DNA of 64,000 bases, taken from Corallococcus exiguus (GTDB taxonomy: Bacteria; Myxococcota; Myxococcia; Myxococcales; Myxococcaceae). Of this stretch, positions 4,114 through 17,054 are shown piece after piece. Location of the stretch: assembly GCF_013248865.1 (NCBI RefSeq), contig NZ_JABNNF010000018.1. One strand, written 5' to 3'. Under the pieces are notes generated by a model. The model did no database searches. It saw nothing but the letters and a program-made list of their open reading frames with translations, and was not told where the DNA came from. Numbering within the stretch: the stretch's first letter is position 1; each line of letters opens with the position of its first letter. A program made the position numbers and the translations under genes.

Positions 4114-4210
4114 ATGCAAACGCAGTCGCCTCGCTGTAAGATATCCAAACCAAGCAATTCAGCATTAACACTGTAAAGCTTGGACAGGATTGCAACGGCC
4201 GGGGGGCCTC

Positions 4211-5134
4211 ATGGACTGGTCGTTGACCGCATCGCTGCTCGCGGAGCGGGACACACGCCCCATCGTCGTGATGGACCGGCGCGGCCGCATCGAGCTGGCG
4301 AACGGCGCGTTCACGTCGCTGCTGGGCCGGCCCCGCGAGGAGTTGTTGGGGCGCCGCTGGACGGATGTCTGCACGCCGAGCGAGCACGGACGCGAGGTGG
4401 GACAAGCGCTGCGGGCCATCTTCACCAGCGCCGAGACGCGGATGGAGACAGAGGTGCTCACGCGCGACGGCGAGCGGCTGCCGGTGGAGCTGGACGTGGC
4501 CGCCGTGGGCCGCCCTCCCCTGCGGCTGGTGGCCATCGTCACGCGCACCGCTCCGCCCCTCTTCGTCCCCGAGCGCACCTTCGTCCCGGAGCCGGCCCGG
4601 GACCACGGGCCTCGCCGGGACCTGAGCTACGAAATCTCCACCGAGCTGTCGTCATTCGGGACGCTCAAGGCGGTGTGGACGTCCGGGGAGGCGCGGCAGG
4701 AGGAGCTGGTGGGCCGGCCGTGCTTCGGCGCCTTCGCGCACCGCGACGCGCCCTGCCTGGACTGCCCGCTGACGATGGCGGCGCCCTCCTCCTGGCCACA
4801 CACCATCGTGCGGCAGGCCTCCGAGCACGCGGAGGGCTATGAGGTCATCACCGCCACGCCCACGAGCGCTGGCACCGCGCGCGTCAGCGTCCACACCATC
4901 GGTGATGAAACACTCAGCGGTCTCTTCGAGGCGAAGGTGCGGCGCATGGCGAACGCCGCGCGGCTGTCCGAGCGGGAAGGCGATGTGTTGCGTTATCTCG
5001 CGCTCGGCCGCTCGCCCACCGACATCTCGACCGTGTTAGGGATTACCGAGCGCACTGTGAAATTCCACCAGGCCAACCTGCTCCGGAAGCTGGGCGCGGA
5101 GACGCGATACGACCTGCTCCGCCTGTTCTTCTGA
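4211..5134 (+). CDS. PAS-domain LuxR-family transcriptional regulator
   Basis: N-terminal PAS-like segment 'IVVMDRRGRIELANGAFTSLLGR'. C-terminal LuxR helix-turn-helix 'LSEREGDVLRYLALGRSPTDISTVLGITERTVKFHQANLLRKLG'. The ATG at 4211 is preferred over the TTG at 4190. Confidence 0.75.
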   Translation: MDWSLTASLLAERDTRPIVVMDRRGRIELANGAFTSLLGRPREELLGRRWTDVCTPSEHGREVGQALRAIFTSAETRMETEVLTRDGERLPVELDVAAVGRPPLRLVAIVTRTAPPLFVPERTFVPEPARDHGPRRDLSYEISTELSSFGTLKAVWTSGEARQEELVGRPCFGAFAHRDAPCLDCPLTMAAPSSWPHTIVRQASEHAEGYEVITATPTSAGTARVSVHTIGDETLSGLFEAKVRRMANAARLSEREGDVLRYLALGRSPTDISTVLGITERTVKFHQANLLRKLGAETRYDLLRLFF

Positions 5135-5339
5135 TCAGGGCGCCTTCCCTCTGGGACAGCTTTCACGCCGTTGACTTTGGGGGATGCTGGTCCTTCGACT
5201 CCGGAGTCTTGTGGGTCGGGGGGGCCGTTGCCCATGGGCAGCGCCAGACAAATCCGTCTCATCAAACACATACAGTCTATGTGGACTTCCGTCCGGGAGC
5301 GTCCTGTCCGTGGGTGACACTCCGGGCTGGGACGACGTG

Positions 5340-7478
5340 ATGCGGGAGTTCCTCCTCGAGTCCCGCGAGCACGTGCAGAGCATCGAGGCGACGGTGCTGG
5401 AGCTGGAGGCGCGGCCGGGCTCGCAGCCGTTGCTGGCGCAGCTGTTCCGGGCCCTGCACACCGTGAAGGGCACCTGCGGCTTCCTGGGCTTCAGCCGCCT
5501 GGAAGCGCTGATGCACGCCGCCGAGGAGATGCTCGGCCTGGCGCGCGACCGGCGCCTGGTGCTGGACCGCGAGCGCGTGTCCACGCTGCTGGCGGCGGCG
5601 GACGCGGCGCGCGGGACGCTGGAGCACATCGAGGCGACAGGGCTGGAGCCCGCGGTGGACCACTCCGCGCTGCTCGCTCGCATGGCGGGCGCGGCGGCGG
5701 GCTCCGCGCCGCTGGAGGTGTCCGAGCCCCTGACGCCTCCGGGTGCCGTGCCCTGGCGCGGCGCCGCGACCGGGGTGGACTCCAAGCTGCGCGTGGACGT
5801 GGCGCTGTTGGACAGGTTGATGAACCTGATGGGCGAGCTGGTGCTGGCGCGCAACCGCATCCTCCAGTGCGCGGCCTCGCCCACGCCGGGCGCGGACCTG
5901 GTCACGGCGTCGCAGCGGTTGGACGTCATCACCACCCAGGTGCAGCAGGTGGTGATGAAGACGCGGCTCCAGCCGGTGGGCCAGGTGTGGAACCGCTTCC
6001 CCCGGCTGGTGCGCGAGCTGGCGCACGGGTGCGGCAAGCAGGTGCGTCTGCAATTGCAGGGCGCGGACACGGAGCTGGACAAGACGCTGGTGGAGGCGCT
6101 GCATGATCCGCTCACCCACCTCTTGCGCAACGCCGTGGACCACGGCGTGGAGACGCCCGAGCAGCGCATGGCCGCGGGCAAGCCGCCCGTGGGGTGCCTG
6201 ACGCTGAGCGCGTCGCACGAGGGCGGGCTCGTGCACCTGGGCATGTCCGACGACGGCGCGGGCATCGACGTGCAGCGCGTGCGGCAGGTCGCGGTGCAGC
6301 GCGACCTGCTCACGGCCGATCAGGCGGCGCGGATGGCGGACGCGGACGCGATGATGCTCATCTTCATGCCGGGCTTCAGCACCGCGGAGCGCGTCACGTC
6401 GCTGTCCGGCCGGGGCGTGGGCATGGACGTGGTGCGCTCGCAGGTGGAGCGCATTGGCGGCACCGTGGAGGTGCACAGCCGGCCCGGTCAGGGCACGACG
6501 TTCACCCTGAAGATTCCCCTCACGCTGGCCATCATCCCGGCGCTGCTCGTCACCTGCCGGGGAGACCGCTACGCGCTGCCGCAGGCCTCCCTGCGAGAGG
6601 TGGTGTTCCTGGAGCCGGCCCAGGCGCGCAGGGACATCACCCGCATCCAGGGCGCGTGCGTCCTGCGGCTGCGCGGGGAGCTGCTGCCGCTGGTGGTGCT
6701 CGCCTCCGAGCTGGGCGTGGGGCCGGCGATGCCGGACCTGGACGAGGGCGCCACCGTCGTCGTGCTGCAGGCCGGTGAGCGCACCTTCGGGCTGTGGGTG
6801 GACGCCATCCACGACACGGAAGAGATCGTCGTCAAGCCGCTGTGGAAGCACCTGAAGGGGCTGGCCTGCTACGCGGGCGCGACGGTGCTGGGCGACGGGC
6901 GCGTGGCGCTCATCCTGGATGCCATGGGTCTGGGCCGCCGCGCGGGCATGGTCACCGAGGCGCAGGCCCAGGTCGTCATTCCGGAGGCCGCCGCGGAAGC
7001 CCCTGCGCCGGAGGAGCCGCGCGAGCGCGTGCTGCTGTGCCGCAACGGCGCGGAGGGCCGCGTGGCCATCCCGCTGTCGCGCGTGGCCCGGCTGGAGGAG
7101 CTGCCCGCGTCGGACATCGAGCGGCTGAGCGGAGGCATGGAGATGGCGCGCTACCACGGGCAGCTGCTGCCGCTGGTGCGCGTGGCGTCCGTGCTGGAGG
7201 CCAGGCCCGGCGCGACCGAGCGGATGGCGCAACACATCCAGGTCGCCCTGGGCGAGTCGCTGTCCGTCGTCGTCACCCAGCACGCGGACACGCGCGTGGG
7301 GCTGGTGGTGGACGCCATCCTCGACGTCGCGGAGGTGGAGCTCGCGCTCCAGTGGGAGACGCGCCGCCCGGGCGTGCTGGGCTCCATGGTGGTGCAGGCC
7401 CGGGCCACCGAGTTCCTGGACGTGGAGGGCACCGTGCGCGCCGTGCACCCGGAGCTGCTGACAGGCGGTGCGCCATGA
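5340..7478 (+). CDS. cheA: Chemotaxis histidine kinase CheA (Hpt, dimerisation and HATPase domains, then two CheW-like domains; no receiver domain)
   Basis: Hpt '[14 protein letters not shown]'. N-box '[12 protein letters not shown]'. G1 'SDDGAGID'. G2 'GRGVGMDVV'. Two C-terminal CheW-like segments. The stop overlaps the cheW start (ATGA). Confidence 0.9.
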
Positions 7479-7963
7479 GCGCCTTCCGTCAGCTGTGCTC
7501 GTTCCAGGTGGGCGACCACCTGTTCGGTCTGGACATCGAACGCGTGCAGGAAATCCTCCTGCCGCCCCCGCTCACGCGCGTCCCCGGCGCGCCTCCGGAA
7601 GTGGCGGGGCTGCTCAACCTGCGCGGACAGATCGTCCCCGCCATCGACCTGCGCCGCCGTCTGGAATTGCCCGAAGGCACCGCACCCGCGGACGCGCCCC
7701 ACGTCGTCCTGCGCGGCGACGAAGGCGCGGTGAGCCTTCGCGTGGATGCCATTGGCGACATCCTCCCCTTCGAACAGTCGGACCTGGCGCCGCTGCCGGA
7801 CAACCTGCGCGGGCCGCTGCGCCCGTTCCTGCTGGGTGTCCATGCGCTGCCGGACCGGCTGCTGCTCGTGTTGTCCGCGGACGCGGTGGTGGACGGGCTC
7901 TCGCCTGCGTCCAGCGCTTCCGCCTCCCCTTCCTTCCCCGTGCTTCCCCAGGAGTCCCGCTGA
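7475..7963 (+). CDS. cheW: CheW coupling protein
   Basis: '[19 protein letters not shown]...[18 protein letters not shown]'. ATGA overlap with cheA. The MCP start follows directly after its stop. Confidence 0.85.
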
Positions 7964-10065
7964 TGGCCCGCCCGACCGCGCCCGCCGTGAAAACCACCCT
8001 CTTCCAGCGCCTGGGCGGCAAGGCCCCCCTGACGGCCGCCGTGCAGAAGCTCTACGCACGGGTGATGACGGACGCGCTGCTCAAGCCCTACTTCCGCCGC
8101 GCGGACATGCTCCAACTGCAGCGCCAGATGGTCGCGTTCCTCACCCAGCACCTGGGTGGGCCGGCCGTCTACAAGGGCCCGTCCATGCGCGACGTGCACG
8201 CGCGCATGGAGCTCAAGCCCCATCACTTCGGGCGCATCGCAGAGCACCTGGCCACCGTGCTGGATGAATTGGACGTGCCGGGCCCCGTCGCCCGCGAGTT
8301 GCTGTCCGCCGTGGGCACCTTGCAGGACGACATCGTGAGCAGGCCCGTCAAGAAGGCCTCCTCCCGGACCGCCGCCGTGAAGCGTGCTCCGGCGCGTGCC
8401 TCCCGGACGGAGGGACGCCGGGTCGCCACGGTGTCCGTGCCCGCGCCCCGGTCCTCGCGCCGCCGCGCGCCCACGCCGCTCGAAGGCGCCCTGAGCGAGG
8501 CGGTGCTGGACGCGGCGAGCGTCAACCTGTTCATCCTGGACCCGGACCTGGCCATCGTCTTCTCGAACGCGTCCTCCTCGGAGGCCATCGAGCGCATCAG
8601 CCAGACGGCCGCCTTCCGCGACAGTGCGGGGGACGCGGGCGGAGACTTCCTCGCCCACTTCGAGCACCAGATTCGCCTTGAAGAAGAGCGGCTGAGCGAC
8701 CCGTCGTCGCTGCCGCACGAAGCCCACTTCGCGGTGGGCGCTGCCCTGCTCAAGGCGCGCATTGACGGCATCTCGGGCCGGGGTGGAGCGCTCACCGGCT
8801 ACGTGGTGACGTGGACGGACGTCACGGATCAACAGCGCGCGGACACGGAGTTGGCGCGCCTCAGGGCCATGATGGAGAACGCGCCCACCTGCGTGATGGT
8901 GGCCGACCTGGACCTGAAGATCGTCTACCTGAACCCCGCCTCGCGCCGGCTGTTGCAGCGCGTGGAGAAGCACCTGCCCATCGCCGCGGACCGGGTGCTG
9001 GGTGCCCCCATCGACGTCTTCCACAAGGACGTGGCGTACCAGCGGAAGATCCTGGCCAACGACAAGAACCTGCCGGTGCGCGCGAACATCCCCATTGGGC
9101 CGGAGACCGCGGACCTGCTGGTGACGGCGGTGTACGACGGCCAGGGCCGCTACCTGGGGCCCATGGTGACGTGGGAGCTGATCACGGAGAAGCTCGCCGT
9201 GCAGCAGCGTGAGAAGGATCTGGACACCACCCTGCGCGGCATCTTCCAGGAGGTGACGCAGCACTCGCAGACGCTCGCCGCGTCGTCGCAGGAGCTGTCC
9301 AGCGTCAGCCAGCAGATGGTGAGCAACGCGCAGGAGACCGCGGCGCAGGCCACCCAGGTGTCCGCCGGCGCCGAACAGGTCAGCCGCAACGTGCAGAGCG
9401 TCGCGTCCGGCATGGAGGAGGTCAACGCGAACATCCGCGAGGTGGCGCGCAACGCGAGCGCCGCCGCCAAGGTGGCGTCCTCCGCGGTGAAGCTCGCGGA
9501 CTCCACGTCCAGCGTCGTCGGCAAGCTGGGCACGAGCAGCCAGGAGATCGGCAAGGTCATCAAGGTCATCACCTCCATCGCGCAGCAGACGAACCTGCTG
9601 GCGCTCAACGCGACCATCGAGGCGGCGCGCGCCGGTGAGGCGGGCCGGGGCTTCGCGGTGGTGGCCAACGAAGTGAAGGAGCTGGCGCGCGAGACGGCCC
9701 GCGCCACGGAGGACATTGGCCAGAAGATCGGCAGCATCCAGGGCGACACCGAGGAGGTGGTCAACGCCATCCTGGAGATTGGCGCCACCATCGGCCGCAT
9801 CAACGAGCTGCAGACGTCCATCGCCTCCTCCGTGGAGGAGCAGACGGCCACCGCGGGGGAGATCCTCCGCAACGTGGGCGAGGCCGCCAAGGGCAGCCAG
9901 CAGATCTCCGAGAACATGGCCGGCGTGGCGGAGGCCGCGCGCAGCACCACCGAGGGCGCGGGCAGCACGCAGCGCTCGGCGGTGGAGCTGGCCCACATGG
10001 CGCAGTCGCTGCAACGGCTGGTCGTGCAGGTGGACACCTCCGACAAGCAGACGCGGACGAAGTAG
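7964..10065 (+). CDS. Methyl-accepting chemotaxis protein with an N-terminal group-I truncated hemoglobin domain and two PAS-like segments
   Basis: trHbN-like 'LFQRLGG...QKLYARV...[18 protein letters not shown]...[11 protein letters not shown]'. PAS-like segments follow. MCP signalling domain '[31 protein letters not shown]'. Confidence 0.85.
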
Positions 10066-10098: not shown

Positions 10099-11628
10099 GT
10101 GCGAACCGGATTGAAGCGGTGGTGGGAGCTGGGCCAGGTGGCCCGTGCCTCCACGCGTCTGCGGCGGGGGTCCCGGCCCCAGGACGTGGAGCGCGCGCGG
10201 CAGGAGCTGACCGAGCGTCTCCTCGGACTGCGGGGCCTGCCCCAGAAGGTGGGGCAGGTGCTCACGCTCGCGGAGCTGGGCGCGGACACGCCGGGGTTCG
10301 GTTCGCTCGCGGAGGCGCCCTCCCCGCTCGACCCGGAGGCCGCGCTGGCGGAGGTGTCCCGCCGGTTGGGCCGTCCGTGGCGGGAGGTGTTCAAGTCGCT
10401 GGAGGGCACGGGCATCGCCGCGTCGCTGGGCCAGGTGCACCGGGGCGTGCTGCATGACGGGCGCACCGTGGCCGTGAAGCTGCGGCACCCGGGCATCGCG
10501 GAGGCCGTGCGGGATGATTTGCGGGCGCTGGGGTGGCTGGCCGCCCCGTTGGGAGGCTGGCGCGGGAAGCTGGACCTGTCCGCCTACCGCCACGAGCTGG
10601 CCCGCATGCTCCAGGGCGAGCTGGACTATCGCCACGAGGCCCAGGCCCTGCAGGACGCGGGCACTCGCATGGCGGAGGTGCCGGGCGTCGTCATCCCCGT
10701 ACCGGTGGATGAGCTCACGCGGGAAGACCTGCTGGTGATGACGTGGGTGGAGGGCGAGTCGCTCGCGGAGGGCTGGCGCTGGAGCGAAGCGGACCGCCGC
10801 GCGCTGTCCACGACGCTGGTGCGCCTGTTCCTCCACGGCTGCTTCACGTGGGGCGCGCTCCACGCGGATCCGCACCCGGGCAACTACCGCGTGTCGCGGG
10901 GAGCGGACGGCAAGCCCGTGCTGGGAGTGCTCGACTTCGGCTGTGTGAAGCCACTGCCGCCGGAGCTGTCCGTGGGGCTGGGGCGGTTGATCTCGCTCCT
11001 CAAGTGTCCGAGCACTCCGCCGCGCCCGGATCAACTCCTGTCCGCGTGGGTGATGCTGGGCTTCGCGCCGGAGTTGCTGGAGCCCATGGCGGAGACACTG
11101 CCCGCCGTCAGCCGCGTGCTGCTGGAGCCCTTCCTCCTGGACCGTCCCTTCCACGCGCGAAGCTGGCGGCTGGGCGAGCGGCTCACCGAGGCGCTGGGGC
11201 CGCACCGCTGGAACTTCCGCGCTGCGGGGCCCGCGTCGCTCCTGTTCGTCCTGCGCGCGTTCCATGGACTGGTGCGCCACCTGGACGTGCTGGATGCGCC
11301 CATCGCCTGGGGACCCCTCCTGGATGAGGCCCGCGCGCCTTCGCTACTACCTCCGCCATCGCCGCCGGCGGCTCCCGTGGAGGGCACCGCGCGCTACCTG
11401 AAGGTCCAGGTGACGGAAGGAGGGCGCACGCGCGTCGCGCTCACCTTCCGCGCGGACGTGACGGCGCACCTGGAGGATCTGCTGCCGGAGGACCTGCCTC
11501 GCAAGCTGGCGGCGCGGGGCGTGGATCCTGCGGCCATTGGTATCGCGGCGGTCGCGGCGGGTCTGCGGCCGTCGGAGTTGTTCCACCTGGATGAGGGCCG
11601 CCGGCGTGTCCGGGTCTGGCTCGAATGA
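10099..11628 (+). CDS. ABC1/UbiB (ADCK) family atypical kinase with about 100 aa of unknown C-terminal domain, encoded inside the che operon
   Basis: 'GIAASLGQVHRGVLHDGRTVAVKLRHPGIAEAVRDDL', 'HADPHPGNY', 'LDFGCV'. GTG start 34 bp after the mcp stop. Confidence 0.75.
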   Translation: MRTGLKRWWELGQVARASTRLRRGSRPQDVERARQELTERLLGLRGLPQKVGQVLTLAELGADTPGFGSLAEAPSPLDPEAALAEVSRRLGRPWREVFKSLEGTGIAASLGQVHRGVLHDGRTVAVKLRHPGIAEAVRDDLRALGWLAAPLGGWRGKLDLSAYRHELARMLQGELDYRHEAQALQDAGTRMAEVPGVVIPVPVDELTREDLLVMTWVEGESLAEGWRWSEADRRALSTTLVRLFLHGCFTWGALHADPHPGNYRVSRGADGKPVLGVLDFGCVKPLPPELSVGLGRLISLLKCPSTPPRPDQLLSAWVMLGFAPELLEPMAETLPAVSRVLLEPFLLDRPFHARSWRLGERLTEALGPHRWNFRAAGPASLLFVLRAFHGLVRHLDVLDAPIAWGPLLDEARAPSLLPPPSPPAAPVEGTARYLKVQVTEGGRTRVALTFRADVTAHLEDLLPEDLPRKLAARGVDPAAIGIAAVAAGLRPSELFHLDEGRRRVRVWLE

Positions 11629-11650
11629 AACACGGACAAGGAGGTGACGG

Positions 11651-11986
11651 ATGGTCACCATCGGCATGAACTACGAAGTGCGTGAGGGCAAGGCGGACGC
11701 CTTCGAGCGGAAGTTCGCGCTCGTGCTGGAGGCGATGCGCAAGCTGCCGACGCACGCTCACACGGAGCTGTTCAAGAGCGTGGGAGCGCCGGGGCGCTAC
11801 CTCATCGTCTCCGAGTGGCACAGCCGCGAGGGCTTCGACGCCTTCGTCGCGTCCGAGGCCTTCCACCGCGTGACGGACTGGGGCGCCAGCGCCATCCTCG
11901 CGAGCCGGCCGCGCCACGAGGTGTATGGAGAGCGGGCCGCCAGCGCCCCAGCGGGCCGCTGCCCGGTCGCGCACGCGGCGCGGTGA
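11651..11986 (+). CDS. Antibiotic-biosynthesis-monooxygenase (ABM) fold protein
   Basis: About 110 aa, 'MVTIGMNYEVREGKADAFERKF...YLIVSEWHSREGFDAFVASEAF'. Lies between the kinase and cheB. Confidence 0.55.
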   Translation: MVTIGMNYEVREGKADAFERKFALVLEAMRKLPTHAHTELFKSVGAPGRYLIVSEWHSREGFDAFVASEAFHRVTDWGASAILASRPRHEVYGERAASAPAGRCPVAHAAR

Positions 11987-11997
11987 AGCGGGTGCGA

Positions 11998-13062
11998 ATG
12001 AACGCCATCCGGGTCCTCGTGGTCGACGACGCGGCCGTGGTGCGGCGTCAGGTGTCGCTGCTGCTGGGCGCGGCTCCGGGCCTGGAGGTCGTCGCCACCG
12101 CGCCCAATGGCCGCATCGCCCTGGCGAAGGTGGAGCAGTTCCAGCCGGACGTCGTGCTGTTGGACCTGGAGATGCCGGAGCTGGACGGGCTGGAGACGCT
12201 GAAGCTCTTGCGCCAACGTGCCCCGGAGTTGCCCGTGGTGATGTTCAGCGCGCTCACCGAACGCGCGGGTGTGTTGACCCTGGAGGCGCTCGCGCTGGGG
12301 GCCCGCGACTACGTGACGAAGCCCACGTCCGCGGGCGGGATGAACATCACCGTGGAGGCCGTGCGGGACGAACTGGTGCGCAAGCTGAAGGCGCTGAACG
12401 TGCGCACGCCGTCCGCGACGCCCTCGCCTCCACTGGTGACGCGCGAGCCGCAGCCCAGGCCGCGAGTGCCCGCGCGGGTGGAGGCCATCGTCGTCGGCGC
12501 GTCCACGGGAGGCCCGGGCGCGCTGGTGCGCCTGGTGTCCGCGCTGCCGGCGGACCTGCCGGTGCCGGTGTTCATCGTGCAGCACATGCCGCCCCTCTTC
12601 ACCCGGCTGCTCGCGGAGCGGTTGCAGGGCGTGACGCCGCTCACCGTGCGTGAGGCGGTGACGGGCGCATCCGTGAATGCGGGCGAGGTGTGGGTCGCTC
12701 CCGGCGACTTCCACCTGGCCGTGTGCCGGGATGCGACGGGCGTGCGGCTGCTCACGCATCAGGGACCGGCGGAGAACGCGTGCCGTCCGGCGGTGGACCT
12801 GCTCTTCCGCTCCGCGGCGGAGGTGTACGGCGCGGGGGTGCTGGCGGTGGTGCTCACCGGCATGGGCCAGGACGGGCTGCGCGGCTGCCGGAGGGTGAAC
12901 GAGGCAGGCGGTCAGGTGGTGGTGCAGGACCAGGCCAGCTGCGTCGTCGGCAGCATGCCGGGTGCGGTGGAACAGGCGGGGCTCGCGGATGCCGTGGTGC
13001 CCCTGGAGGCGCTGGCCCTGGAGCTGGCGCGGCGCGTGGATCCGCGCGGACGGAGGACTTGA
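11998..13062 (+). CDS. cheB: Protein-glutamate methylesterase CheB (receiver plus methylesterase)
   Basis: Receiver 'IRVLVVDDAAVVRR...DVVLLDLEMPELDG'. Esterase 'VGASTGGPGAL', 'FIVQHMPPLFT'. Confidence 0.9.
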   Translation: MNAIRVLVVDDAAVVRRQVSLLLGAAPGLEVVATAPNGRIALAKVEQFQPDVVLLDLEMPELDGLETLKLLRQRAPELPVVMFSALTERAGVLTLEALALGARDYVTKPTSAGGMNITVEAVRDELVRKLKALNVRTPSATPSPPLVTREPQPRPRVPARVEAIVVGASTGGPGALVRLVSALPADLPVPVFIVQHMPPLFTRLLAERLQGVTPLTVREAVTGASVNAGEVWVAPGDFHLAVCRDATGVRLLTHQGPAENACRPAVDLLFRSAAEVYGAGVLAVVLTGMGQDGLRGCRRVNEAGGQVVVQDQASCVVGSMPGAVEQAGLADAVVPLEALALELARRVDPRGRRT

Positions 13063-13064
13063 AC

Positions 13065-13955
13065 ATGTCCCTGCTTCCCGACGACTTCGCGTACCTGCGG
13101 CAGCGCGTGCTGCGCCGCTCCGGGCTCGTGCTGGAGTCCGACACGTACGCGCTGGTGGAGACGCGGCTCACGCCCCTCATGCGCGAGGAACGGCTGCCGG
13201 ACCTCTCCTCCCTGGTGTCGCGGTTGCGCTCGCAGCCAGAGGGCAGTCCGCTGCACCAGCGCCTGGCGGAAGCGCTGGCCAACCACGAGACGGCTTTCTT
13301 CCGCGACGCGCCCGTCTTCGACGCCCTGCGCACCACGGTGCTGCCCACGCTGCTGGCCAGGCGCGTCCGCACGAGGACGCTGCGCATCTGGTGCGCGGCG
13401 TGTGCCTACGGTCAGGAGCCCTACAGCGTCGCGATGACGCTGGCCGAGGCCGGACTGCTCATCACCGGATGGACGGTGCGCATCCTCGCCACGGACTTCT
13501 CCACCCGCGCCATCGTCCGCGCCTGCGAGGCCCGCTACGACTCGAAGGAGATTCACCGGGGCCTGACGCCCGAACTGCGCCAGCGCTACTTCCACCAGGA
13601 GCGCGACGGGTGGCGGCTGAGTGAACAGGTGCGCAAGCCGGTGGAGTTCCGGCCGCTCAACCTGATGGAGGACTTCCCGCTGGAAGCGCCCGTGGATCTC
13701 GTCTTCCTGCGCAACGTGATGATCTACTGGGACGCGCCCACCCGGCGCGCGGTGCTCGCCCGCGTGCGGCGGATGATCCACGCGGACGGCTACCTGGTGC
13801 TGGGCGCCGCGGAGGCCTCGCCCCTGGTGGAGGACGGCTTCACGCGGCACCTGATTGGTCAGGCGAGCTGGTACCGCCCCACGCCCGCCTCGACTGGCGT
13901 CGGCACGCCCGTGGAGGACGCGCGGCGCTCGCCCCGCTCCGGCGCTACACCTTGA
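13065..13955 (+). CDS. cheR: Chemotaxis methyltransferase CheR
   Basis: 'ETAFFRD', 'RIWCAACAYGQEPYSVAM', 'VFLRNVMIYWD'. Starts 2 nt after the cheB stop. Confidence 0.9.
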   Translation: MSLLPDDFAYLRQRVLRRSGLVLESDTYALVETRLTPLMREERLPDLSSLVSRLRSQPEGSPLHQRLAEALANHETAFFRDAPVFDALRTTVLPTLLARRVRTRTLRIWCAACAYGQEPYSVAMTLAEAGLLITGWTVRILATDFSTRAIVRACEARYDSKEIHRGLTPELRQRYFHQERDGWRLSEQVRKPVEFRPLNLMEDFPLEAPVDLVFLRNVMIYWDAPTRRAVLARVRRMIHADGYLVLGAAEASPLVEDGFTRHLIGQASWYRPTPASTGVGTPVEDARRSPRSGATP

Positions 13956-14865
13956 GGCGGATGGCGCCCGGCAACAGCGTCATGGTGCAAGGCAGCCGGC
14001 CCGGCGTCTCGCCGTCCACGTCCAGGAACACGTCGCCCGTCAGCGACTCGGCGTGGATGGTGCGGCAGCGCAGCCGCCGCGTGCCCTTCCAGGTGACGTG
14101 GTCGCCGTTGTAGACGCCCTTGGACTTGAGGACGAAGTCGGACAGGCCGTAGTTGGACCAGATGGTGACGTCGAAGAGGCCGTCGTGCGTCACCGCGTCG
14201 GGCGCCACGAACATGCCGCTGCCGAAGTAGCGGCCGTTGGCCACGGCCACCGCGGTGACGCTCACCGTCTCCGGCTCGCCGCCGTCCACCGTGAGGCGCA
14301 CCTGCTGCTCCTGGTACTTGATGAGGCCCTTCACGGTGCCCCACATGAAGCTCAGGTTGCCGCCCAGCGCCTTGCTGCCCTGGTTCACCTCGCGGGCCAC
14401 CACCGCGCTCACGCCGAACGAGGCGATGTTGGCGAAGAAGCGCGTGGCCGGCTTGCCGTCGTTGTCGGTGAACTCCAGCCGCCCCACGTCGAAGGGCTCG
14501 GTGGTTTCCGTGCGCAGCCGCTCCAGCGCGGACGTCAGCTCCAGGTCCCACCCGAAGGTGCGGCGGAAGTCGCCGCCCGTGCCTCGGGGCAACAGGCCCA
14601 GCGTGGCCCGGGGGTTGATGACCTGTCCGTCGCGGAAGAAGCCGTTGGTGACCTCGTTGAGGGTGCCGTCGCCGCCCACCGCGACGATGCACTCAAAACC
14701 GTCATCGATGGCCTGCTGCGCCAGACGCGCCGCATCCATGCCGCCGCTGGTGAAGCCGTACCCGAAGTCGCCGAGCACCTTGCCCACCTGCGCGGAGATC
14801 TCCACCCATCGCTTCCCCGTCTGCCCGTTGGCGCTGCGCGGGTTGACCACGAGGAACGTCTTCAT
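13945..14865 (-). CDS. Diacylglycerol/lipid kinase (DAGK_cat, YegS/BmrU-like)
   Basis: 'MKTFLVVNPRSANG...FECIVAVGGDGTLNEV...LGLLPRGTGGDF'. Convergent with cheR with an 11-nt overlap. Confidence 0.75.
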   Translation of the reverse strand: MKTFLVVNPRSANGQTGKRWVEISAQVGKVLGDFGYGFTSGGMDAARLAQQAIDDGFECIVAVGGDGTLNEVTNGFFRDGQVINPRATLGLLPRGTGGDFRRTFGWDLELTSALERLRTETTEPFDVGRLEFTDNDGKPATRFFANIASFGVSAVVAREVNQGSKALGGNLSFMWGTVKGLIKYQEQQVRLTVDGGEPETVSVTAVAVANGRYFGSGMFVAPDAVTHDGLFDVTIWSNYGLSDFVLKSKGVYNGDHVTWKGTRRLRCRTIHAESLTGDVFLDVDGETPGRLPCTMTLLPGAIRLKV

Positions 14866-15022: not shown

Positions 15023-15700
15023 GTGAATGCCCCGTCCTCCACCGAGCAGCTCGCGCCCCACCGGGAGGCCACACTCGCCCTGGACTGGGCGCTGCCCGCG
15101 CTCCGGGCGGACCTGACGGCGGCGGCGCGCCAGCCCTTCCGGGAGACAGGGGCCCAGGAGGACTTCCTGCACCGTCATGACGCACCGGCCCATGAAACCC
15201 AGGGAACGGCGCGGACGGAGCGCTTCGAACGGGCCCTGGACCGGGTGCGGCGGCTCGCGGACATGGGCGAGCCGCTGACCTTCGCCCGGATGGTGGAGGT
15301 CCAGGTGGAGCTCCTGGGCGCGCCCACGGGCTTTCGCACCGGGGACGCCTTCGCGCGCGGTGGCGAGCACCGCTATGCGCAAGCGCCCGGCCTGGAGGCG
15401 GCCTTCCGCGACAAGGTGGAAGCGGACGCACGGGAAAAACGTCATCCCGTGGCGCATGCCACGCGGTTGTATCTGGACCTCTGTTTCTTCCACCCCTTCC
15501 CTGACGGCAACGCCCGCGCGGCAAGGCTGTGGCTGGAATACATGCTGCGCCGGGGCCGGCTGCCCACGCCACCGCTGGCGCCCGTGGTGCTGTGGCCCAA
15601 GCGCCCGGGGGACGCGGTGAACTACACACGGCTGGCGAGGCTGCTGGCCCGGACCATCGCGGGGTCGGACGCCCCGTGCCGCAACGAGGTGCCCGAATGA
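15023..15700 (+). CDS. Fic/Doc family protein (start uncertain; the in-frame GTG at 15023 is a guess)
   Basis: Fic motif 'HPFPDGNARAARLWLEYMLRR' (HxFx(D/E)GN(G/A)R). The stop overlaps the next start (ATGA). Confidence 0.65.
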   Translation: MNAPSSTEQLAPHREATLALDWALPALRADLTAAARQPFRETGAQEDFLHRHDAPAHETQGTARTERFERALDRVRRLADMGEPLTFARMVEVQVELLGAPTGFRTGDAFARGGEHRYAQAPGLEAAFRDKVEADAREKRHPVAHATRLYLDLCFFHPFPDGNARAARLWLEYMLRRGRLPTPPLAPVVLWPKRPGDAVNYTRLARLLARTIAGSDAPCRNEVPE

Positions 15701-16362
15701 GCAGTGACGCTTCGGCTTTCACGTGGCGCCGCATCCGCGACAGCCTGGATGCCTACGCACCGCAAGCGCTGGCGTCCCGGCTGAGGGATTCCTTGGCCCC
15801 CCTTCGGTCCGGAAGCATCCACGCAAGCCGGCTCAAGCAGGCGCAGAACGCCGTGAAGGACCTGCTCCAGGCCGAGCTGGGGCCCTGGTACATCGAGAGC
15901 GGCCTGCCCCTGGGCAATGAAGTGCTGGGGGGCTATTGCTGGTGTCACTCGTTCTTCAACCAGAACCCGCCGCATCGGACGATGGACGTGGATGCGAACA
16001 TCCAGCTCATGCTGGAGGCGCTGGAGCGGATCCGTTCGTTTCTGTACGCGCTGGACGGCGTGTATCAGGGCGCGCGGCGTCAGCTCGAGTTGGCGGCCGA
16101 CGACAAGGCTCTCCGGGCGAAGGCGCTCGCGGAGGGGCTGGTGCGGACCGTGGACCTGACGGCGGAGACGACGTCCTGCGAGGAGACCTGGTACCAGGTC
16201 GCGCAGGACGCCATGTCGTGGTGCATCGAGGCGATGGGACTGCCCTTGTCGGATGCCACGCAGGAGCAGTTGGACACAGCCTTCAACTTCACGTCCTGGA
16301 TCGCGCCGCCCCCGGAGGTCCTCCGCGACGCCGCGGCGCGGGTGGCGGAGGTGGCCGTATGA
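15697..16362 (+). CDS. Hypothetical protein, paralog A of a tandem pair downstream of Fic
   Basis: 221 aa. Shared motifs 'LGPWYIESGLPLGNEVLGGYCWCHSFF', 'TSCEETWYQVAQDAMSW'. ATGA coupling on both sides. Confidence 0.55.
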   Translation: MSSDASAFTWRRIRDSLDAYAPQALASRLRDSLAPLRSGSIHASRLKQAQNAVKDLLQAELGPWYIESGLPLGNEVLGGYCWCHSFFNQNPPHRTMDVDANIQLMLEALERIRSFLYALDGVYQGARRQLELAADDKALRAKALAEGLVRTVDLTAETTSCEETWYQVAQDAMSWCIEAMGLPLSDATQEQLDTAFNFTSWIAPPPEVLRDAAARVAEVAV

Positions 16363-17054
16363 GCAGGTCGGCCCTGGGGCATTGGCTGCGCATCCGCGAC
16401 AACCTGGACGAGTATGAGCCGGAGAAGCTCATCCGGTTGCTGCGCGAATACCTGGCGCCGCGCGTGCCCCCGGGGACGCGCAAGCTCACGGACGAGCAGC
16501 ACGACACGATGGCGAAGCACATCCAGCGGATGCTCAACCAGAACCTGGGGCCCTGGTACACGGAGACGGGTCTGTATCTGGGCAATGAGAGCTTCGGCGG
16601 CTACTGCTGGTGCCACCGCTTCTTCAGACAGAAGCCCACCCCGAACATGAGCGTGGAATACAACATCCAGCTCATCATCAACGCGCTCGAGCAGTCGCGC
16701 GAATGGCTGTTCAAGCTGGATACCCACTTCCAGGCGCTGAAGCGGGACCTGCCGTCCGGCCCCGGCGACAATGACATCCGGACGCTGGCGTTGGCGGATG
16801 GACTCGTCACCACGATGAACCTCACCATGGACGCCACGGGCTGCGAGGAGTCCTGGTACACCTTCGCGGACGAAGCGCTGTCCTGGATGTTCGACGCCAT
16901 CGAACTGCGCCCCGGCTATCAGGCCGGGAAGCTGATGCGGAAGCTGTTCGCCTTCGAGTCCTGGCACTCGCCACCGGAGGCGGAGCTACGCGACTCGGCG
17001 GAGAAGGTGGCGGCGGCCGTCGTGGAAGACGAGGGCCGCCGGCACACGCACTAA
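16359..17054 (+). CDS. Hypothetical protein, paralog B (about 30-35% identical to paralog A by eye)
   Basis: 'LGPWYTETGLYLGNESFGGYCWCHRFF', 'TGCEESWYTFADEALSW'. ATGA overlap with paralog A. Confidence 0.55.
   Translation: MSRSALGHWLRIRDNLDEYEPEKLIRLLREYLAPRVPPGTRKLTDEQHDTMAKHIQRMLNQNLGPWYTETGLYLGNESFGGYCWCHRFFRQKPTPNMSVEYNIQLIINALEQSREWLFKLDTHFQALKRDLPSGPGDNDIRTLALADGLVTTMNLTMDATGCEESWYTFADEALSWMFDAIELRPGYQAGKLMRKLFAFESWHSPPEAELRDSAEKVAAAVVEDEGRRHTH

Follow-up and report, generated by a model that had tools for sequence, protein, structure and literature searches.

The Aer2/Che2 system of Pseudomonas aeruginosa is built around a soluble methyl-accepting chemotaxis protein (MCP) with a heme-binding PAS domain and has dedicated cheA, cheW, cheR and cheB genes. 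Che2 is not known to contain an ABC1 or an ABM gene, nor Aer2 a globin domain. HemAT-type sensors are likewise soluble and consist of a heme globin, a sensor globin, fused to an MCP signalling domain. A chemotaxis (che) cluster with two additional genes, Cc-5, was described for Corallococcus coralloides DSM 2259 in the order CheA-CheW-MCP(Bac_globin+PAS)-ABC1-ABM-CheB-CheR, without CheY (Sharma, Parales and Singer 2018, BMC Genomics 19:757, PMC6194562). In this purely in silico study the cluster was detected in one of 34 myxobacterial genomes, and aerotaxis was proposed as its function. The two extra proteins were called monooxygenases aiding ubiquinone biosynthesis; no other che cluster with ABC1/ABM was reported, and both genes were thought to have been acquired separately (PMC6194562). 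Here, we analyzed a stretch of 64,000 nucleotides from Corallococcus exiguus (assembly GCF_013248865.1, contig NZ_JABNNF010000018.1; hereafter the window), in which an ABC1/UbiB-family gene and an ABM gene lie between the mcp gene of a soluble heme receptor and cheB. The window cluster has the same gene content and order as Cc-5, also without CheY, and is the published Cc-5 locus in a Corallococcus strain, so that the placement of ABC1 and ABM was already known. The cluster can now be recognized in Corallococcus more widely, with eight or more species or strains carrying it. Literature searches yielded no other paper that connects ABC1/UbiB proteins with che clusters. The present data differ from the published account in that the ABC1 gene was found in che clusters of many phyla and the ABM gene in a subset of these loci.

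The kinase-like ABC1 protein of the window belongs to a clade whose genes accompany heme-sensor che clusters as a conserved accessory in five or more named bacterial phyla. Members of this clade are encoded almost only within che clusters. In every case with a complete receptor, this receptor is a cytoplasmic MCP that contains a heme-PAS domain of the Aer2-like type and often a truncated globin as well. A scan of a genome collection with the full-length kinase alignment was swamped by the generic HADPHPGN pattern and yielded clade members at two of 80 loci; the other 78 loci were kept as a control set. A metagenome scan that employed only the C-terminal part of the alignment added 70 loci, and all neighborhoods were scored by tblastn using the window proteins. 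At least one che gene was detected at 34 of the 38 clade loci with a flank of at least 5 kb, and 28 of them had two or more. No che gene was located near generic ABC1 loci from the genome scan (0 of 72). CheA was the most frequent neighbor of the clade (26 loci), followed by MCP (24), CheW and CheB (23 each), CheR (21) and globin (12). The pairwise distances of the ABC1 proteins correlated with those of the adjacent CheB proteins over 28 loci (r = 0.81), as compared with 0.85 for CheB and MCP. The first-pass annotation of the window had suggested that the same insertion be sought in other che clusters, and it is indeed present there: the kinase clade occurs in che clusters of distant phyla, and the gene pair lies between MCP and CheB (or CheY-CheB) at four loci outside Corallococcus (L086, L087, L090 and L092).

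These observations bear on the possibility that ABC1 and ABM are unrelated passengers, which were inserted by chance and are co-transcribed with the che genes but irrelevant to signalling. Similar che clusters without ABC1 and ABM do exist, and the Corallococcus cluster, which is devoid of CheY, may itself be degenerate. A passenger is nevertheless difficult to reconcile with che linkage across phyla (34 of 38 versus 0 of 72 loci), with ABC1 distances that track those of CheB, with intact catalytic motifs and 82-92% identity within Corallococcus, and with an ABC1-ABM pairing that survives rearrangement. We consider this explanation highly improbable.

The named taxa of the che-linked clade include Acidobacteriota, Nitrospiria, Gemmatimonadota and Verrucomicrobiota, and the gene orders of individual loci vary. 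A metagenome contig (L004) contains CheA-CheW-(4-TM protein)-globin-PAS-MCP-ABC1-CheB, where 4-TM denotes four transmembrane segments. A metagenome-assembled genome (MAG) of the Acidobacteriota (Acidiferrales; L001) shows CheA-CheW-MCP fragment-ABC1-CheR..., and an Opitutaceae locus (L007) CheA-MCP-CheW-globin-?-ABC1-CheB-CheR. The order MCP-ABC1-ABM-CheY-CheB is found in a Nitrospiria MAG (L086), while a 953-kb contig (L087) carries CheW-globin-PAS-MCP-ABC1-ABM-CheY-CheB-CheR-Rieske; the order MCP-ABC1-ABM-(CheY)-CheB recurs at L086, L087, L090 and L092. A Gemmatimonadota locus (L167) is organized as PAS-MCP-ABC1-CheY-CheB-CheR-PilZ-CheX. In a Vicinamibacterales MAG (L166) the order is CheA-CheW-x-globin-MCP-CheY-CheB-CheR-CheX-x-ABC1, followed by flagellin, fliD and fliS. 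L004 and L166 are, like L001, counted among the Acidobacteriota contexts. A CheY gene is absent from the Corallococcus cluster, in which only 11 bp (11987-11997) separate abm from cheB; a single-domain CheY gene occupies this position in three relatives (L086, 3444-3818; L087, 9333-9722; L092, 2710-3024).

Two side observations were made at these loci. The gene at L004:5536-5898 encodes a membrane protein of about 120 aa, and in nine sister clusters a conserved gene of this type separates cheW from the globin-MCP gene (homologs at L093, L094, L106, L108, L130, L131, L139 and L147). This gene is absent from the window, and its product shows a weak, sub-threshold match to DUF420 (CtaM-like; E 1.7e-4). 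Secondly, the flagellin, fliD and fliS genes at L166:11047-13763 directly adjoin a globin-MCP/ABC1 che cluster, which suggests that the system controls swimming in flagellated hosts; Corallococcus is non-flagellated.

The receptor encoded next to the gene pair was analyzed domain by domain. The MCP matched the Pfam families Bac_globin (2.3e-18) and MCPsignal (1.3e-32), and the NCBIfam Aer2 model at 9.1e-58, which is below the model cut-off. The N-terminal domain is a truncated hemoglobin of group 1 with the 2-on-2 fold (PDB 3aq5, E 4.6e-19) and with identical B10 Tyr and proximal His positions. This globin type and the additional heme-PAS domain set the protein apart from HemAT. The second PAS domain is Aer2-like (PDB 3vol, E 6.9e-15; 4hi4, 6e-14). 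While the earlier description of Cc-5 treated the PAS domain generically, the heme-ligand His ('FH', in 'IDVFHK') is kept here, as is a Trp (in 'VTW') whose aligned counterpart in Aer2 (in 'VQW') stabilises O2. As both a truncated globin and an Aer2-like PAS domain are present, the receptor is predicted to carry two hemes. The heme-based receptor beside the gene pair was correctly recognized in the first-pass annotation, and the link extends beyond Corallococcus: an Aer2-like PAS domain was identified in 24 of 32 neighboring MCPs across the kinase-clade loci, with most of the other eight being cut by contig ends, and a globin was found in 14 of the 32.

The ABC1 protein matched Pfam PF03109 with an E-value of 9.8e-48 (162.9 bits, cut-off 22.9). 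An alignment of 23 sequences revealed invariant residues in all parts of the kinase-like core, namely the KxGQ motif Q49-K50-x-G52-Q53 (Q49-K50-V-G52-Q53 in the window), A108-S109 in the A-rich loop, K127, E174/D176 of the ExD motif, E180, the catalytic loop H255-A-D257...N262 and the DFG motif D279-F-G. An AlphaFold2 (AF2) model was obtained with a predicted local distance difference test (pLDDT) value of 83. Foldseek searches with this model, which is a prediction only, identified COQ8A (5i35, E 1.1e-15; and 4ped) with template modeling scores of 0.76-0.79 normalised to the target, as well as MSMEG_1954 and Rv3197 (E 3.5e-15 to 3.7e-13). COQ8A/ADCK3 and bacterial UbiB thus resemble the window protein in fold (22% identity) and share with it the KxGQ motif, the A-rich loop, the catalytic Lys, Glu, Asp and Asn residues and the DFG and ExD motifs. 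In contrast to these proteins, the window protein has no transmembrane anchor, contains an extra C-terminal domain (CTD), scores below the equivalog cut-offs and is encoded in a che operon instead of with ubi or coq genes. Rv3197 (MABP-1) and MSMEG_1954 are mycobacterial ABC1 ATPases with solved structures and a similar fold (26-29% identity), and their Foldseek alignments cover 340-415 columns of the 509-residue query. These proteins have been linked to macrolide binding and not to chemotaxis, and the window protein reached 117 bits with the NCBIfam MABP-1 model, for which the cut-off is 800.

The published assignment of ABC1 and ABM as monooxygenases for ubiquinone biosynthesis and aerobic respiration, which would have been picked up separately after the five che genes (Sharma et al. 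2018), can be assessed with these data. It is in keeping with the membership of the ABC1 protein in the UbiB/AarF superfamily, with quinol oxidation by some ABM proteins (cited in PMC6194562) and with the fact that the genomes then at hand showed no other che cluster containing the two genes (PMC6194562). Yet the protein failed the UbiB equivalog models by a wide margin (TIGR01982, 124 bits versus 487.55; PRK04750, 85.4 versus 667). Escherichia coli UbiB has a C-terminal membrane anchor, whereas the window protein terminates in a soluble alpha/beta domain; no transmembrane segment was detected, as the highest Kyte-Doolittle mean over 19 residues was 1.3. No ubi genes were found near the ABC1 gene, whose neighbors are che genes. 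Myxobacteria are generally menaquinone organisms, and menaquinone-8 (MK-8) has been reported for a related myxobacterium; a literature search for Corallococcus and MK-8 returned nothing, so that this evidence comes from a related genus only. In addition, the kinase clade is tied to che clusters in many phyla. The failure of the UbiB models, the che linkage, the missing transmembrane segment and the MK-8 quinone lead us to strongly disfavor both a ubiquinone function, which we regard as very unlikely, and the passenger explanation discussed above. Judged by sequence, the ABC1 protein is a member of the UbiB superfamily that falls into a soluble clade, and it is no UbiB ortholog; the family name given in the first-pass annotation is upheld at the level of the superfamily and not beyond.

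A different possibility is that the ABC1 protein acts as a genuine protein kinase that phosphorylates Ser, Thr or Tyr residues of the MCP, CheA, CheB or another pathway protein and thereby provides a second layer of covalent control. All catalytic residues of a protein-kinase-like fold are present, the operon position beside the receptor and CheB or CheY is conserved, and protein phosphorylation in vitro has been reported for plant ABC1K proteins. This must be set against the KxGQ motif and N-terminal helices, which occlude the peptide-binding groove in COQ8A and are invariant here, and against the known activities of COQ8A and Rv3197/MABP-1, which are ATPases or small-molecule binders and not kinases acting on other proteins. 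A protein kinase is considered unlikely, though less so than the two explanations rejected above. A fusion of ABC1 with a receiver domain was pursued as a clue to an interaction partner and was dismissed, as neighboring receiver domains and ABC1 proved to be separate open reading frames.

The clade is marked by the CTD of about 80 aa, which follows a Pro-rich linker that varies in length and sequence in the alignment. When modelled alone, the CTD reached a pLDDT of 92; it matched no Pfam family and no PDB fold. A CTD profile searched against 1.84 billion representative proteins retrieved 718 clusters at E <=0.001. With one exception, the domain was C-terminal in the 150 matches listed, and the host sequences were proteins of about 490-590 aa or short fragments. 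All ABC1 homologs with more than 80% identity are from Corallococcus. Beyond this genus the identity is at most 49% (42-49%), over the full length and with the CTD present in all sequences; these distant homologs originate from Acidobacteriota, Nitrospiria, Gemmatimonadota, Vicinamibacterales and Opitutaceae MAGs. Some unusual forms of the protein were also noted. An 81-aa open reading frame at L164:1678-1923 consists of the CTD alone; nothing kinase-like was found in the preceding 1.6 kb, and the context is uninformative. Many 81-aa representatives in the profile search likewise begin where the domain does, with a conserved Met. Such open reading frames could represent either independent copies of the domain or fragments. 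One protein of 590 aa (P0223) combines an N-terminus resembling the Hpt and P3 regions of CheA with the last two-thirds of an ABC1 protein of the clade, which may reflect a real fusion/deletion or an assembly chimera.

The ABM protein contains an ABM ferredoxin-like domain (Pfam PF03992, E 2e-15, 57.2 bits, cut-off 23.1). Residues T3, A4, G5, M6, N7, Y8, E9, F18, E19, H35, Y50, L51, S54 and W56 are invariant in the clade alignment, as are F65, F71, W77, L83, H89 and Y92. Most of the members with a C-terminal tail share the sequence G-x-C-P-V-x-H in it, which is represented by C104-P-V-A-H108 (nt 11960-11974) in the window. The ABM domain and an Asn near the N-terminus are common to the heme-degrading proteins IsdG, IsdI, MhuD and HmuQ, with which the sequence matches are weak. 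It has been considered here that the ABM protein is an IsdG-like heme degrader or a heme chaperone and, together with the kinase, serves the turnover or loading of the receptor heme. The receptors encoded alongside are predicted to bind heme, and the C-terminal ABM region of the NCBIfam model 'heme-binding protein' PRK09565 was matched at 1.2e-10. Asn7 is invariant, and the conserved Cys-Pro tail may resemble Cys-Pro heme-regulatory motifs. The sequence details do not agree with canonical heme degradation, however. The position of the catalytic Trp66 of MhuD (Trp67 of IsdG) is taken by Phe65, which is invariant in 35 clade members. The heme-ligand His75 of MhuD aligns with Glu69, albeit at low alignment confidence in this region, and His72, which lies close by, varies among clade members. 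HMMER sequence and profile alignments to MhuD place Asn7 one residue off (Tyr8 on Ile9). With regard to overall similarity, the protein scored 18.5 bits with the HmuQ equivalog (cut-off 130) and matched MhuD at 5e-4 as a single sequence and about 1e-5 as a profile; the polyketide ABM oxygenases 9lmn, 9vah and 7bio matched as well as MhuD or better, all of these matches being weak. The replaced Trp66 and the missing conserved counterpart of His75 led us to reject the ABM protein as a canonical IsdG-type heme oxygenase at the sequence level, and the IsdG-like character raised in the first-pass annotation could not be demonstrated. A role in receptor heme turnover or loading is accordingly rated as unlikely, slightly more so than a protein kinase activity of ABC1.

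The distribution of the ABM gene points in the same direction. A member of the ABM clade was located within 1 kb of the ABC1 gene at six of 41 kinase-seeded loci with flanks on both sides (about 15%), a sample that is unbiased with respect to ABM. ABM clade members also occur solitarily and far from any heme sensor (L088 and L160). The pair was seen in four arrangements. ABC1 precedes ABM in the window, in C. terminator (L006) and at L086, L087, L090 and L092; the reverse order was observed at L137, L142 and L162, and a convergent pair at L121. The pair at L162 (Hydrogenedentes) is not accompanied by che genes. The ABM clade is an optional but recurrent partner of the kinase clade, and in the genomes it is associated with the kinase, not with che genes as such. 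Small genes of the sister clusters were inspected as possible diverged ABMs and were discarded, since L004:5536-5898 encodes the 4-TM protein with the weak DUF420 match and L166:7636-7953 had no similarity to ABM proteins (hhalign probability 0.1%). Small genes for Rieske [2Fe-2S] proteins of about 100-105 aa were noticed at L087:11677-11994, L088:1179-1493 and L162:5653-5955. Such genes are present within a few kb of an ABM-clade gene at three of four independently seeded ABM loci, which is a small sample, and an alternative oxidase gene is located nearby at L160.

The origin of the Corallococcus cluster can be viewed in a new light. The locus on the 953-kb contig (L087) is the closest relative outside Corallococcus for CheB (59%) and for the MCP signalling domain (68%). 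Its ABM and ABC1 proteins are 61% and 45% identical to those of the window, and the best-scoring loci exceed these values by no more than 1-2 points. Because the whole MCP-ABC1-ABM-CheB-CheR block exists outside Corallococcus, the acquisition of one block appears more parsimonious than the published stepwise scenario. A separate later acquisition is also at odds with the MCP-ABC1-ABM-CheB block at L086 and L087, and the idea that the kinase was a later add-on is contradicted by its cross-phylum conservation. The block, including ABC1 and ABM, would have entered Corallococcus as a unit by horizontal transfer.

Taken as a whole, the findings are best explained by a soluble UbiB/COQ8 clade that is a conserved accessory of heme-sensor che clusters, for which an ATPase role and transfer of the block are inferred; we hold this explanation to be reasonably probable. 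The ABC1 protein would act as an ATPase like the characterised UbiB-family proteins rather than as a classical protein kinase. The ligand to which it responds is probably small, hydrophobic and redox-active and may be quinone- or phenol-like or related to heme. The CTD may dock the protein on the receptor/CheA/CheW array, where it would supply metabolic-redox input or maintain the cofactor competence of the receptor heme. The ABM protein may bind or oxidise the same ligand. According to this proposal, the module would contribute neither to ubiquinone synthesis nor to IsdG-type heme oxygenation. In short, the protein would be an accessory of the receptor array that is driven by ATP and serves a redox or cofactor function. 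The redox or heme accessory module envisaged in the first-pass annotation is likewise a reasonable proposal; as a whole, that interpretation is partly supported, and its underlying observation is confirmed. A more far-reaching proposal is that the CTD-bearing ABC1 proteins represent an unrecognised, widespread class of chemosensory auxiliary proteins, namely soluble UbiB-family ATPases that dock on cytoplasmic Aer2/globin arrays via the CTD and couple a redox-active small molecule, with ABM where present, to CheA control or to the upkeep of the receptor cofactor. This proposal is put forward tentatively, with slightly more doubt than trust.

Several points weigh against the favored explanation. 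Four clade loci with flanks of at least 5 kb (L109, L121, L138 and L162) are without a che gene. The che genes were detected by similarity to the window proteins, and the linkage frequencies compare clade loci on metagenome contigs with control loci in species genomes. Shared organismal phylogeny rather than functional coupling could account for the correlation of the protein distances. The scans for sigma-70 promoters and terminators around the cluster are weak tests at 70% GC and uninformative for myxobacterial promoters. The nature of the ligand and the docking role of the CTD are pure inference. A 2026 review of aerotaxis cites the cluster only as an in silico prediction and does not mention ABC1. 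Finally, related che clusters without ABC1 are known from Nocardioides, Nostoc and others (PMC6194562), so that the ABC1 protein is not essential for this type of receptor.

The features of the locus are compiled in Table 1. The GC content of the window is about 70%, and its proteins are 82-94% identical to Corallococcus entries. The open reading frames and Pfam matches verified that the intact ABC1 and ABM genes are located between mcp and cheB on the plus strand, as annotated at first pass. The mcp/abc1, abc1/abm and abm/cheB gaps measure 33, 22 and 11 bp, each one less than initially annotated (34, 23 and 12 bp). The mcp gene ends with a TAG codon at 10063-10065, and Shine-Dalgarno-like sequences precede both non-che genes (GGGAG about 10 nt 5' of the ABC1 start and GGAGG at 11640-11644 ahead of the ABM start). 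GC3, the GC fraction at third codon positions, ranges from 0.86 to 0.96 in all seven genes of the array. The spacing in C. terminator is identical to that of the window. No terminator-like or sigma-70-like sites were identified between 3900 and 15000 in a simple scan, which is a weak test in a myxobacterial genome of 70% GC. As the genes overlap or are separated by gaps of 11-33 bp, as no terminator or promoter match was found and as the spacing is the same in C. terminator, a single mcp-abc1-abm-cheB operon is plausible and the pattern is consistent with one transcript. Co-transcription, which the first-pass annotation called almost certain, is thus plausible. Internal promoters or terminators, which had been named as signs that the pair is separated from the che genes, did not appear in the scanned interval, with the same reservation for myxobacterial promoters.

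Table 1. Genes and protein domains of the che cluster and its surroundings in the C. exiguus window.
Feature	Coordinates	Strand	Evidence and remarks
PAS-LuxR (GerE) one-component regulator	4190..5134	+	Pfam GerE 4e-15, PAS_4 7.5e-12; just 5' of cheA
cheA (Hpt, dimerisation, HATPase, two CheW-like stretches)	5340..7478	+	Pfam; stop overlaps cheW start as ATGA
cheW	7475..7963	+	Pfam CheW 1.9e-29; stop overlaps mcp start as TGATG
mcp, soluble MCP (truncated globin ~7993-8334, Aer2-like heme-PAS ~8845-9216, MCP signalling domain)	7963..10065	+	Pfam, NCBIfam, PDB
ABC1/UbiB-family gene	10099-11628	+	GTG start, TGA stop, 509 aa; Pfam ABC1 PF03109
ABC1 protein, kinase-like core, residues 1-411	10099..11331	+	Pfam ABC1, alignment, AF2 model, Foldseek
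ABC1 protein, Pro-rich linker, predicted disordered, residues ~412-428	11332..11382	+	pLDDT <50 at 414-428; length and sequence vary in alignment
ABC1 protein, CTD, residues ~429-509 (strand-strand/three helices/strand-strand), plus stop codon	11383..11628	+	
ABM gene	11651-11986	+	ATG start, TGA stop, 111 aa; Pfam ABM PF03992
cheB (receiver domain and methylesterase)	11998..13062	+	ATG start; Pfam CheB_methylest 1.4e-60, Response_reg 2.2e-25
cheR	13065..13955	+	Pfam CheR 5.5e-51; begins 2 bp past cheB stop
YegS/diacylglycerol-kinase-like lipid kinase gene	13945-14865	-	convergent on cheR

The genes bordering the cluster were also inspected. The PAS-LuxR gene is separated from cheA by an intergenic region of 205 bp (5135-5339) and is syntenic in C. 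terminator, where its product is 82% identical. No homolog was found beside related clusters of other phyla. The regulator may belong to the same island as the che cluster, and it may serve, specifically in Corallococcus, to regulate the cluster or as one of its outputs. At the other border, the 3' ends of cheR and the YegS-like gene overlap by 11 bp (13945-13955), and no terminator-like hairpin was found at this overlap. Further downstream, two tandem paralogs on the plus strand (15694-16362 and 16359-17054) are 43% identical over 215 aa (E 2e-60); both share a 'GGYCWCH-FF' motif and matched no Pfam family.

The novelty of these findings lies in the cross-phylum che linkage of a kinase clade marked by its CTD, while the gene pair in the Corallococcus operon has been known since 2018. 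For the chemotaxis field, the ABC1 protein is a candidate for a new auxiliary component of the poorly understood Aer2/Che2-like cytoplasmic arrays. The molecular job of the UbiB-family ATPases is a long-standing question, and the clade offers this field a soluble member with candidate partners and a measurable output. As Corallococcus is culturable, these hypotheses are testable. Should the more far-reaching proposal above be true, this would make it the first protein of the UbiB family for which protein partners and a signalling read-out are defined.

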